Shown piece by piece: positions 3,539-42,012 of a stretch of DNA of 64,000 bases. Position 1 is the first letter of the stretch; the number at the start of each line of letters is the position of its first letter. The notes beneath the pieces are model-generated. The model did not search any database. It was not told the DNA's origin and saw only the letters and a program-made list of their open reading frames with translations. The position numbers and the translations under genes are program-made. Location of the stretch: the NCBI GenBank assembly GCA_964016885.1, contig OZ024746.1, positions 48,174,001 through 48,238,000 on the forward strand. Direction: 5' to 3'. This DNA comes from Eledone cirrhosa. Lineage: Eukaryota.

Positions 3539-4183
3539 AATGCGAGAGGGCGCTATAGAAGTGGTGGATAGCTTCCGGTACCTGGGAGATCAGATTAGCA
3601 TGGGAGGAGGGTGTTCCGAGGCCATAGTATCTAGAATAAGGACGGGTTGGAAGAAGTTTAGGGAGCTGCTTCCTCTGTTGACGAAGAAGGGTTTCTCCCT
3701 GCGTACGAAAGGCCGGTTGTATGATGCCTGTGTGAGGAGCGCGATACTGCATGGTAGTGAGACATGGGCAGCAACCGCAGAGGATATGTGACGGCTGGAG
3801 AGAAATGAGGCAAGCATGCTCCGTTGGATGTGCAGTGTAAATGTGCGTGAACGACCCAGCATAAATGTGTTGAGAGAGAAACTGTGTCTGAGAGGGATAG
3901 AATGTAGTGTACGGGAGAGGAGACTGAGGTGGTATGGACATGTGATGCGCATGGAGGATGACCGATGGGTGAAGAAGTGCCAGGAAATGCCAGTTGAAGG
4001 AAGACGTGGTAGAGGTAGACCACGAAAAACATGGGCGGAGGTGGTGAGAACAGACCTCAGATCATTGAAGCTCACGGTGGAGATGACGAGGGACCGTGAC
4101 GAGTGGAGAGATACTGTGCTGAATAAGACCCATCCCACCCTTGCAAGCAGGGAAAAGCGGACGTAAAATGATGATGATGATGA
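3539..4183 (+). mobile_element. RTE-clade LINE 3' fragment (RT C-terminus/thumb) with (GAT)n tail
   Basis: ORFs 3540-3791 and 3816-4166 in the same frame, split by one TGA; motifs VDSFRYLG, LHGSETW, RLRWYGHVMR, GRGRPRKTW; ends cgtaaaatgatgatgat. Confidence 0.92.
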
Positions 4184-4600: not shown

Positions 4601-4634
4601 ACACGGGTGTGTATGATTGTGTATAGAAGATTTT

Positions 4635-4916
4635 ATTAATAAAAGGAATTCCAACTTTGTCTGATTTACTCATTTCATTTACAATCCTTTAAAATTTATA
4701 ATGGTATTAGAATGAAATAGTATGGTAGAATATTAAATGTTAAGTGTTAATTGAACAAGTACTTTCATGCTTTCGCAATCTTCAGGTTCACATTCTGTGG
4801 TGACAGTCAAGTTTGCAATTTTCAACTGTCAATTTTGAACAGTTGAAAATTGCAAACTTGAAGGATTGTAAATGAAACAAGTAAATCAGACAAAGTTGGA
4901 ATTCCTTTTATTAATA
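4635..4916. mobile_element. Snap-back (foldback) element with nested inverted repeats
   Basis: 4635-4689 is the inverted complement of 4861-4916; 4807-4829 is the perfect inverted complement of 4839-4861; flanked by TA-rich satellites. Confidence 0.75.
4749..4794 (-). ncRNA. Minimal type I hammerhead ribozyme motif
   Basis: Minus: aatgtgaac-CTGAAGA-ttgc gaaa gcat-GAAA-gtac-TT-gttcaatt; stem I tgaac/gttca, stem II tgc/gca with GAAA tetraloop, palindromic stem III. Confidence 0.75.
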
Positions 4917-5019: not shown

Positions 5020-5060
<41 letters not shown>

Positions 5061-5067
<7 letters not shown>

Positions 5068-5317
5068 ATAAATGGAAAACTATATTTATAAAACCATATT
5101 TATTTCATTATATATATTTCGGGGATATCATATTAACAATATGCTATGCCTTCATCAGACAAAATACAATATAAACAGTTTTATAGATAAACATATTCGA
5201 CATACCGTAATAAACATCAACTTCATTTGGAGAGGTTATATTATTTGTCGAGTGCTTTTATATCAGTTATAAATATTTACTAGTTGTAACAACAATTTTA
5301 AATATAACTTTACATGT
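5061..5317 (-). mobile_element. Short non-autonomous hammerhead-bearing element (retrozyme/Penelope-pLTR-like) in (TA)n
   Basis: Both ends homologous to 15141-15531; (TA)n on both sides; no meaningful ORF. Confidence 0.7.
5095..5173 (-). ncRNA. Type I hammerhead ribozyme motif
   Basis: Minus: tatattgtattttgt-CTGATGA-aggcatagcatattgttaatatgatatcccc-GAAA-tatata-TA-atgaaataaatatg; ~14-bp stem I, hairpin stem II, palindromic stem III. Confidence 0.85.
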
Positions 5318-5616
5318 ATATATATATATAAATATTTATAGACAAATACATATACATACATATATATAAATATATATAGACAAATACATATACATACATA
5401 CATTTATATATATCATGATCATCAGCATCATCGTTTAACGTCCATCTTCCACGCTTGCATGGGTTTGGACGGGAGTTTTCCCACTTGAGGCAAGATTGGT
5501 TGTCTTGCTCGTATAGAACTGTCTGGCGGGTTTTCTACGGCTGGATGCCCTTCCTAACACCAACCACGTTTAGATATTACTATATAAATATATATAGACA
5601 AATACATATACATACC

Positions 5617-7091
5617 ATCATCATCACTGTTTTACGTCCGTTCTTCCATGCTAGCATGGGTTAGACGGGTTGTCCTGTTGTGGGCAGTGTCTGGTCGGCT
5701 GACCATGCCTTGCTCATACAGGAACTGATTTTGGCTTAATTTCTACAGCTGGATGCCCTTCCTAACACAAACCTCATTTACAGTGAGTGCTGGGTGCATT
5801 TTTCCGTGGCGCCTACACGTCCACTTTACAGTGTGGGCTGGGTGCTTTTTTGCTGTGGCACCTCCACGACCACTTTGCAGTGGAAGTGTGTGGGGGCATA
5901 TTGTCTATATGCTTCAGCTTGTACCCATGGGAGGTCGGGTACTCTGTATTACTGTGTGACGCCAGAGGTCACGGTCGTGTGTCTCGCCTTTGAGACGTGT
6001 AATTGGGTAAGGTCGGCTTTTATCACCTCATCCTGGGTCTTCTTGGGTCTCCCCACTCCGCGGTTTTCATTGACTTCTAGTGCTCTGCACCTTTTTATGC
6101 AGCTGTCATCCTTCATACGCATCACATGTCCATACCAATGCAACCGCCTCTCCTGCACACAGCATTTGATTCCTCTTATGCTCAGTCTCTCTCTCAATTC
6201 ATTTATACTTTGTCGTTCGCGTATATTACTATTACACATCCATCGGAGTATGCAGGCTTCGTTTCTTTCTAATCTATGTAAGTCTTCCACCTTCAGTGCC
6301 CAGGTCTCACTACCATGTAACATTGCTGTTCGGATACACGCATCATACAGTCTGCCTTTCTTACCCTAGTTATTGTACTTTCTGAACACCCACCTCCGCT
6401 GCTAATTCGGTCACCTAGGTAGCAGAAGCTGTCTACTGTTTCTACAGAGCCCTCCCAGAGATTGGTGGTACTTGTTTCAGTGGCTGTTTGCTACTTGCTG
6501 TCCCAGAACAGCTGCTGCATGTGAAGCCTACATTCTTAATTAAGCTTCCTGAGATCCCGCTACATCTCTTGTGTACCCATTGTTTGCATTTGGGGCAGAG
6601 AATGGAGTTCCTACCTACACCTTTCCTACATACTGAGCAAGGCCATTTCTCCGGGGGGATCTGAGTTCGGTTTTCTCATCTACTTACAAGGACCTTAGTC
6701 TTTGTCATGTTGACTTTGAGACCCTTTCTTTCTAGTCCCTGCTTCCAAGTTTGGAATTTCTTCTCTAGTTCTACCATAGATTCAGCTATAAGTGCGAGGT
6801 CATCAGCATACAGGAGTTCCCATGGGCATCCGGTCTTAAACTCATCCGTTATTGCCTGCAGGACTATGATGAACAGGAGAGGGCTAAGAGTAGAGCCCTG
6901 GTGGACACCAACCTGTACGCTAAATTCCTCGCTATACACATTGCTAATCCTAACTTTGCTGACTGCTCCCCTATACATGGCTTGTACAGCTTTCACAAGC
7001 CATTCATCTACTCCTAGATTTCTAAGAGCCCACCAGATTACAGCACGTGGAACTCTGTCAATGGCTTTCTTGAGATCGACGAATGCCAGGT
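5617..7091 (-). mobile_element. 5'-truncated RTE-clade LINE (RT domains 3-7, PHD finger, C-terminus, 3' UTR); pseudogenised
   Basis: [34 protein letters not shown] (6676-7091); LHGSETW, RLHWYGHVMR (5949-6323); in-frame stop at 6676-6678; (CAT)n at 5617. Confidence 0.93.
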
Positions 7092-7117
7092 ATATATATA
7101 AATATATATAGACAAAT

Positions 7118-15142: not shown

Positions 15143-15531
15143 GATATTAATAAATGGAAACTATATTTTATAAAACCATATTATTTCATTATACATATTT
15201 CAGGGATACCAAATTAAAATATGGTATGCCTTCATCAGACAAAATACAATATATAAACAGTTTCATAAATAATTTTGACGTACCCTATTAGATGCAACCA
15301 TTATTTTTGGAAGCTGTCTGGATAGTGAAATGTTTATTATTTTATTAGTTATAGTGTTAAGCACAATTAGAAAAAGACGGAGAGAAAGAAAGAAAAGACA
15401 GAGAGAGAGAAGGAGAGAGAGAGAAGGACATTAATATCGTATATCTACTCCAAAAACTTGTCGAGTGCTTTATATCAGTTATAAAATATTTACTTGTTGT
15501 ATCCCAACAATTTTAAATAGAACTTTTGCAT
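15141..15531 (-). mobile_element. Second, longer member of the hammerhead-bearing (TA)n-flanked family
   Basis: Shares both ends with 5061-5317; different, longer interior. Confidence 0.7.
15177..15253 (-). ncRNA. Type I hammerhead ribozyme motif
   Basis: Minus: tatattgtattttgt-CTGATGA-aggcatacca...tggtatccct-GAAA-tatgta-TA-atgaaataatatg. Confidence 0.85.
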
Positions 15532-41041: not shown

Positions 41042-41683
41042 TTAACAAACTGTTTCATGGCAAATGCAGTTTATATTTTCATAATGTAGTATTACTGCTA
41101 ACATTAACATAGATTGCAGTAGTTGTAAACTAAACACTTAGCTACTACATACTTCATCACAACAATTCCTGCATAAAATGTCTTTAAGGAATCAATACAT
41201 TATGCAAGCCTTTAGCCTTTTTGTGACAATATTTCCAACAGAATATCTTAAATTTTAAATAATTAATAAAGAATCTTAAGAGATTTAGTAAATATTTCAT
41301 GACTAAGAAATTAACTTAACATGGTTTTATATAAAATTACGTTAACAGATTTTGATTTAAATAAAAACCTTTCAAAATTGATGATTTTGTTTCATAGAAC
41401 CAGAGTTAGTTTTGGCGTGGTTGCTATCAAAAGTGTTAAATCATTTTTTGACACAAAAGAGATTAAAAGATGATCCATGCAACTAGCACAGAGATATTAA
41501 ATAAGTAATCTGCTGACTTGGAACTTTGGAAAGTAAGAGGGTTAGACCCCCCCAAAAAAATCCTCATCATATATATCATATATATATATATATATATATA
41601 TAGTTGTGTATAATGGTAGCTATGGTGCTTCCACAGGCGGTATGCCAAAATTAGCACTCGATATTCAGCAGAGTAGAGTGTAG

Positions 41684-41977
41684 ATAGTATAAAGAAAACG
41701 AAAAATCAGTGATGCATCTGGACTTAATTTATTGTGTGCTACAATTGTTTCACCGGCAGGTAGCTCGAGACATGGTCCCTGTATGGATATGGTTGACTCT
41801 ACTGCTGCAGGTTCTTTCAGACATGGGTATTTCGTTCGAAATATTTGAACCTGCAGCAGTAGAGTCAACCAGATCCATACAGGGACCATATCTCGAGCTA
41901 CCTGCCGGCGAAACAATTGCAGCACGCAATAAATTAAGTCCAGATGCATCACTGATTTTTCGTTTTCCTTATACTAT
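41684..41977. mobile_element. Foldback element: 131-bp arms (41684-41814 / 41847-41977), 32-bp spacer
   Basis: About 6 mismatches between arms; (TA)n nearby on both sides; GAAA-caattg-(T/C)A in each arm. Confidence 0.9.
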
Positions 41978-42012
41978 ATATATATATAGATAAGAAATAC
42001 ATTAAAGTTTCA

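Follow-up and report, generated by a model that had tools for sequence, protein, structure and literature searches.

Penelope-like elements (PLEs) of the Hydra clade are already known from octopus, and how the inverted and tailed ends of PLEs are formed has been stated as an open question (PMC8557442; statements on published systems here and below refer to the accessible portions of the papers cited). PLE hammerheads typically carry an extra nucleotide before G10.1-C11.1 (PMC4209133), and among the Hydra hammerheads that have been listed, the base of stem II is often mismatched (PMC8557442). With Poseidon PAc of Anolis carolinensis, both strands are extended in vitro and hammerhead cleavage is not needed for insertion; the PAc hammerhead is inactive without protein (PMC11167929). 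Metazoan non-LTR retrozymes, for which a PLE origin has been proposed, likewise possess a type I hammerhead with a short palindromic stem III and are similar in size to the piece of DNA described here; they consist of units repeated in tandem, head to tail, carry no fewer than two hammerheads and give rise to circles upon expression (PMC7229834; bioRxiv 10.64898/2026.07.22.740005). Inversion of copies, restriction of the tail to one end and the existence of two start sites have each been published before.

We analyzed a 64-kb stretch of Eledone cirrhosa DNA (the window), in which an initial annotation made from the letters alone had marked a 257-bp ORF-less element with a well-formed hammerhead, flanked by (TA)n on both sides. 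The motif and both (TA)n flanks are present as described, but the single element is not: when aligned to the intact copy L052, the 257 bp is a composite of two opposed PLE pieces (Table 1). Both (TA)n flanks sit within a TA-rich minisatellite. It contains no meaningful ORF, although a chance ATG-initiated ORF of 66 aa is found on the plus strand. We interpret the piece, with a probability of about 0.8, as a dead 5'-truncated inverted insertion of a young PLE with Hydra-clade motifs, likely formed by a double nick in (TA)n about 14 nt apart and priming at two fixed internal sites of the RNA. The piece is of a sort that this already known type of retrotransposon ordinarily yields.

The parent element has the order 5' UTR, 737-aa ORF, 1.5-kb 3' UTR and pseudo-LTR (pLTR) with hammerhead, in a unit of 3.9-4.1 kb (3,891 bp in L051). 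Its pLTR has a constant end, E1, which lies 50 nt 3' of the predicted cut site; alternatively, it may be extended by a tail of 92 nt that forms the beginning of the 5' UTR and is itself bounded by another constant end, E2. In L051, L052 and L053 the tail continues into the 5' UTR and ATG. One outer end of the 257-bp piece is at E1 and the other at E2. The two arms, which map to the pLTR and the tail of L052, have no sequence in common; tail nt 1-15 are absent, and the remainder of the tail differs from that of L052 by one mismatch and a 2-nt gap. The suspected link to PLEs and to a pLTR is borne out by the near-identity of the hammerhead arm to the pLTR of an autonomous copy. The alternative label of solo pLTR was right about the pLTR and overlooked the 76-nt inverted tail.

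Table 1. Features of the 257-bp piece and its flanks (positions within the window; E1 and E2, fixed ends of the parent element)
Feature	Position	Strand	Basis
3' part of PLE pseudo-LTR (pLTR), ending at E1; spans -178 to about -2 relative to E1	5061..5237	-	175/177 nt identical to L052 upstream pLTR
Type I hammerhead motif, palindromic stem III	5095..5172	-	sequence, descriptor vs shuffles, stem II covariation among relatives
Hammerhead core, CUGAUGA	5158-5152	-	
Hammerhead stem II region	5151-5121	-	
Hammerhead core, GAA	5120-5118	-	
Hammerhead stem III palindrome, A15.1-UAUAUA-U16.1	5117-5110	-	
Hammerhead N17	5109	-	
Predicted cut, triplet AUA	5109/5108	-	
Inversion junction ATAT, 4 nt, outside both arms	5238..5241	.	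L052 alignment
Inverted arm, nt 16-93 of 92-nt tail, ending at E2	5242..5317	+	L052 alignment
(TA)n target, E1 side	about 5032..5060	.	pure TA
(TA)n target, E2 side, then 38-42-bp TA-rich minisatellite	5317..5330	.	

In a first search of the 3.0-Gb genome, many 99% matches among the 40 of 498 candidates that were scored covered only 177 of the 257 nt, the remainder matching nearby on the opposite strand. The ATAT inversion junction occurs once genome-wide. A gapped pattern detected 29 look-alike stubs, three of which have one junction in common, located on short microhomology; with 27 different junctions among 29 copies, the stubs must have had independent origins. Other inverted structures are present in the window. 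Adjoining the 257-bp piece at 4634-4915 is a TA-flanked, head-to-head inverted repeat family with more than 1,100 first-look candidates, and within it a hammerhead-like core at 4785-4749 on the minus strand (CTGAAGA...GAAA, palindromic GTAC) failed the strict descriptor. At 41681-41980, 134-nt arms that are 95% complementary lie 32 nt apart beside TA, and this is probably another inverted PLE stub. Broken pieces of a LINE reverse transcriptase, which we take to be RTE-like, are found at 3540-4100 and 5740-7100, split by TA minisatellites.

Conservation of the core across genomic copies is extensive: a 53-nt hammerhead core is present in 2,843 exact copies genome-wide (control pattern, 0). Among the loci fetched, six copies encode a complete 737-aa ORF from Met with the motif YRDD; L051 has YRYD. 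The ORF itself has no match in Pfam or NCBIfam, and a sequence search of solved structures returned only a weak match to a retron reverse transcriptase (RT). An AlphaFold model of the ORF (pLDDT 81.5, from a 10-sequence alignment) has telomerase RTs (TERT) as its top Foldseek matches (E 6.6e-10), its Atlas neighbors are annotated with RVT_1 and GIY-YIG, and one relative gives a weak GIY-YIG match. From the modeled fold and these neighbors, we classify the parent as an EN+ PLE whose single ORF combines a telomerase-like RT with a GIY-YIG endonuclease.

The ORF possesses the motifs RWR, DKT, CNCRDRSKC (the CxCx5C linker), CDLC (CxxC) and CKH (CxH), with one Cys between IVY and YVG, and CCHH is absent. 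Near residue 68 there is a GVKF string, at an alignment position occupied by other residues in relatives; the definition of the Hydra clade states that GxKF/Y, a motif at the N terminus, is not conserved (PMC8557442). Insertion into (TA)n and a canonical hammerhead are further Hydra-clade traits of the parent, and pLTRs, partial tandems (L051, L052, L053, L119), inverted 5'-truncated copies and an optional tail are general PLE traits. By its motifs, the parent would be placed in the Hydra clade. The Naiad clade was also considered, for its (TA)n targeting, and was rejected given the C-terminal endonuclease and the hammerhead of the parent. The only species-named protein relatives of the ORF are from Argonauta hians, at 38-40%. 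Longer open frames of 981-1,664 aa at L057, L058 and L135 hold the RT and endonuclease motifs of the parent, and are apparently in-frame rearranged or duplicated copies. At L051:571-1074, near the full-length copy, another Hydra-like family is represented by a C-terminal GIY-YIG fragment of 167 aa.

The hammerhead is itself an expected PLE feature, and it lies on the minus strand where it had been noted; it has the CUGANGA and GAAA core and an NUH triplet, and its palindromic stem III and predicted cut are as claimed (Table 1). The cut is 48 nt from the 5061 end, which had been given as about 50 nt, and stem I, described as about 14 bp with one bulge, consists of 15 consecutive pairs with one bulged G, four of the 15 being G-U. 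The term well-formed goes somewhat far: stem II (-4.9 kcal/mol) opens with an A.C or an extra A and contains two mismatches, one of a C and one G.A, and the predicted monomer fold contains a competing helix. With a custom descriptor, the window gave two matches, one being the 257-bp piece and the other, at 15238, a relative; no match came from any of 30 block shuffles, so the motif is beyond chance. Rfam detected no hammerhead in the window (E<=1) or in the 257 nt (E<=10), and this we treat as a limit of the Rfam models. Among 15 hand-picked hammerhead variants from the same genome, five of 11 stem II pairs are changed on both sides, amounting to 12 covarying cells against 4.8 when shuffled (0/500), a control inflated by the relatedness of the sequences. 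Stem I exhibits one-sided changes only, stem III is invariant, and the core is constant except for N7.

In the predicted monomer, the 5' strand of stem I pairs with GAAAUAU with a probability of about 0.75, the resulting helix hides GAAA, and the active fold is disfavored by 3.5 to 7.5 kcal/mol. A double hammerhead is predicted at -18.8 kcal/mol, against -17.4 for two monomers, which makes it 1.4 better. From the folding predictions, the monomeric ribozyme would be misfolded and would rely on dimerization or on protein, and its activity is likely to be low and dimer- or protein-dependent. PLE hammerheads are dense in this genome. At least six further type I hammerhead families were encountered by chance in 0.72 Mb of flanks (loci L001-L152), differing in their palindromic stem III (ACTAGT, ATGCGCAT, ATGCAT, ATATGTAT).

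The arrangement of the 257-bp piece, with E1 at one outer end and E2 at the other, is the rule among insertions of the parent. When the core matches on contig C1 are taken in order of position, 45 of the first 60 loci have two outward-facing ends, and these comprise 44 E1+E2 insertions, a single E1/E1 insertion (L108) and no E2/E2. The script counts were 40 and 2; four loci were re-assigned by hand from the BLAST map, since the script had paired L105 with the insertion of a relative, had missed the motif in L110 and L152, and L119 spans more than 8 kb. The other 15 loci are single-armed or unresolved, and 11 of them end at E2, three at E1 and one at neither. All 38 diverging pairs among the matches listed are mixed, a set that overlaps the 60-locus sample. 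In 40 further E1-anchored loci, a second end is found within about 1.9 kb in 21, and it is E2 in 21/21. Exact end patterns gave 2,497 E1 and 1,535 E2 ends. Against strict pairing are the 15 loci without two resolved ends and the two E1/E1 insertions, the second being L015 from a similarity-picked set. An older sister family, represented in the window at 15144-15530 on the minus strand by an inverted tail and pLTR in (TA)n, has many copies at 94-98% and a better-paired stem II with compensatory changes; manual reading of similarity-picked loci of this family gave 12 mixed insertions and one possible E1/E1.

Target duplications are normally obscured within (TA)n, and at the 257-bp copy the duplication is unreadable because the flanks are pure TA. 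In a sample of 70 two-ended insertions, however, 20 have interrupted TA on both sides. Seventeen of these 20 have an informative direct repeat, which is 13-15 bp long in 15; when the flanks were re-paired in 1,000 trials, 13-15-bp repeats numbered 1.6 on average and six at most.

The one-of-each end pattern likely reflects copying from two fixed RNA starts at staggered nicks, and twin-primed insertion from mostly uncut RNA is the best reading of the data. We infer the nicking, the priming, the participation of a protein dimer and the start site of the transcript as follows. The ORF protein would nick (TA)n on both strands, about 14 nt apart, and each TA 3' overhang would prime on the RNA at its own site, the first being E1, which is 50 nt beyond the cut site in the 3' direction, and the second E2, after another 92 nt; a short UA-like patch is present at both E1 and E2. 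The two cDNAs would stop early and then be joined head to head. The usual template would be a transcript starting near -190 at the Inr-like TCACT, in which the hammerhead is mostly uncut at integration and cleaves only as a dimer or with the help of protein. The 257-bp copy would represent this scheme at its smallest: its arms do not overlap, and 15 bases of the tail are missing. In most two-ended copies the arms overlap, which, for a model based on one RNA, would require strand displacement, so two RNAs may be used. A fuller version, in which integration is coordinated at both ends by a dimer with a 14-nt stagger, one nick is assigned to each start site, the template is mainly uncut pLTR-started RNA, and the subfamily is expanding with a weakened, self-sequestering hammerhead, we consider evenly balanced between right and wrong. 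If true, a coordinated two-ended rule, under which almost all two-armed insertions would receive a single tailed end, would explain together the long-noted optional tail and the inverted pLTRs.

Evidence on the template comes from 145 arms whose identity to the reference is 88% or more, more diverged arms having been dropped. The predicted cut site is crossed by 129 of them, and L184 is the sole arm to start at it; 100 of the 145 arms are from intact-core loci, and the set is therefore biased against ends at the cut site. In 56 arms the 5' end falls at -195 to -176 relative to E1, a peak that covers the Inr-like TCACT at -192 to -188, directly after a pyrimidine tract. The pile-up near -190 is compatible with transcription starting there as well as with the polymerase stopping at the pyrimidine tract. 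A rotifer pLTR has the same Inr-like word TCACT (PMC3846280), and the promoter of the D. virilis element is internal to the pLTR (PMC2377424). At L209:1600-1760, a stub junction contains a piece of 5' UTR and ORF start from beyond E2, and the template of that copy therefore ran past the tail.

Crossing of the cut site would be no sign of uncut RNA if the template were a hammerhead-cleaved and religated circular RNA, a model that has been proposed (PMC4209133). Partial tandems do exist, and for long arms with ORF the template has to continue into another pLTR and tail located downstream. Of four relatives tested, two have the double-hammerhead dimer as their cofold minimum; for the sequence of the 257-bp copy, however, the minimum is an inactive duplex at -25.9 kcal/mol rather than the dimer. 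A circle would also have no 5' end, yet more than a third of the arms, 56/145, stop in the same 20-nt interval. We regard circular RNA as the doubtful but most serious alternative; it concerns which template is used, the element remaining what it is, and the two kinds of template may occur side by side.

It is less likely still that the inverted layout arose by fold-back or self-priming of one cDNA or antisense transcript rather than from two nicks. Fold-back has been proposed for rotifer Penelope elements (PMC3846280), and some copies, e.g., L095, L130 and L131, have perfect-palindrome junctions of the type it would produce. Both outer ends are nonetheless fixed RNA positions beside a 14-bp duplication, and of the 44 mixed insertions there are 11 whose E1 arm extends more in the 5' direction than the E2 arm, the only one with the tail. 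In those 11 and in the 257-bp copy the E1 arm holds sequence that the E2 arm lacks, so neither arm is a fold-back copy of the other, and the non-overlapping arms argue against fold-back as the sole route.

The weakest alternative, and the one that the initial annotation had favored beside a solo pLTR, is that of a non-autonomous retrozyme monomer, transcribed as a 257-nt unit, self-cleaved, circularized and copied as such; its size and type I hammerhead are within the 150-450-bp retrozyme range (PMC7229834) and the overall layout is common to the 29 look-alikes, of which three share a junction, but that repeated junction sits on microhomology, the diversity of the other junctions and the unique one of the 257-bp piece are not those of a propagated unit, the piece is partly antisense with a single hammerhead, the 257 nt have no stable rod fold (z +0.86, no better than shuffles), and among the first 100 of 2,843 core matches listed, short head-to-tail repeats are absent and the closest same-strand pair is 4.1 kb apart, equal to one element unit, so that this reading is largely refuted and very improbable.

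The parent element is of a kind that is already known, within which it represents a new family, unmatched to any in the open literature searched. In the open papers searched, we found no end-pairing count, no 14-bp duplication in (TA)n and no 92-nt tail, nor a twin-priming account of PLE tails with an end-pairing count; the accessible part of the O. vulgaris repeat paper mentions neither Hydra elements nor hammerheads. Thousands of near-identical insertions, together with intact ORFs, permit the counting of features that were formerly only described. A target duplication of about 14 bp is legible within (TA)n, a setting that usually hides it, and the arms end close to an Inr-like site instead of at the ribozyme cut. 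The parent family represents a clean, countable test system for PLE integration, and yields sharp predictions in vitro.

Twin priming of L1 also generates inversion, loss of bases at the junction and target duplication, as in the scenario for the 257-bp copy. The first priming of L1 takes place at the poly(A) end and the second at internal sites that vary, whereas both putative sites of the parent element are fixed and internal. In comparison with metazoan retrozymes, the 257-bp piece is one composite, inverted and joined at a junction that no other copy shares.

In Poseidon PAc, reverse transcription likewise starts at two internal positions that delimit the tail and are located downstream of the hammerhead (PMC11167929), and the behavior of PAc in vitro is in line with the twin-priming model. 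Its start sites are inside the ORF, about 30-40 nt apart, whereas the putative start sites of the parent are in the 5' UTR, 92 nt apart. Strict one-of-each use of the ends is counted in the parent element, and the accessible part of the PAc study contains no such report.

The nearest published counterparts are the C-terminal EN+ PLEs of the Hydra clade, including Hydra-1_Obim of Octopus bimaculoides, which have the same single ORF with RT and C-terminal GIY-YIG, the same RW(K/R), DKT, CxCx5C, CxxC and CxH motifs in the absence of CCHH, and which likewise carry a hammerhead close to the 3' end, insert into (TA)n, form inverted copies truncated at the 5' side and have a tail at one end (PMC8557442). 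The hammerhead and protein of Hydra-1_Obim, compared by eye, differ from those of the parent element (PMC8557442). Hydra-clade elements are mostly shorter than 3 kb, with a tail of 30-40 bp (PMC8557442), in contrast to the 3.9-4.1-kb unit of the parent with its 1.5-kb 3' UTR and 92-nt tail. The parent is further distinguished from the described members of the clade by its copy number, at least 2,843 near-identical copies, and by a 14-bp target duplication that can be read.
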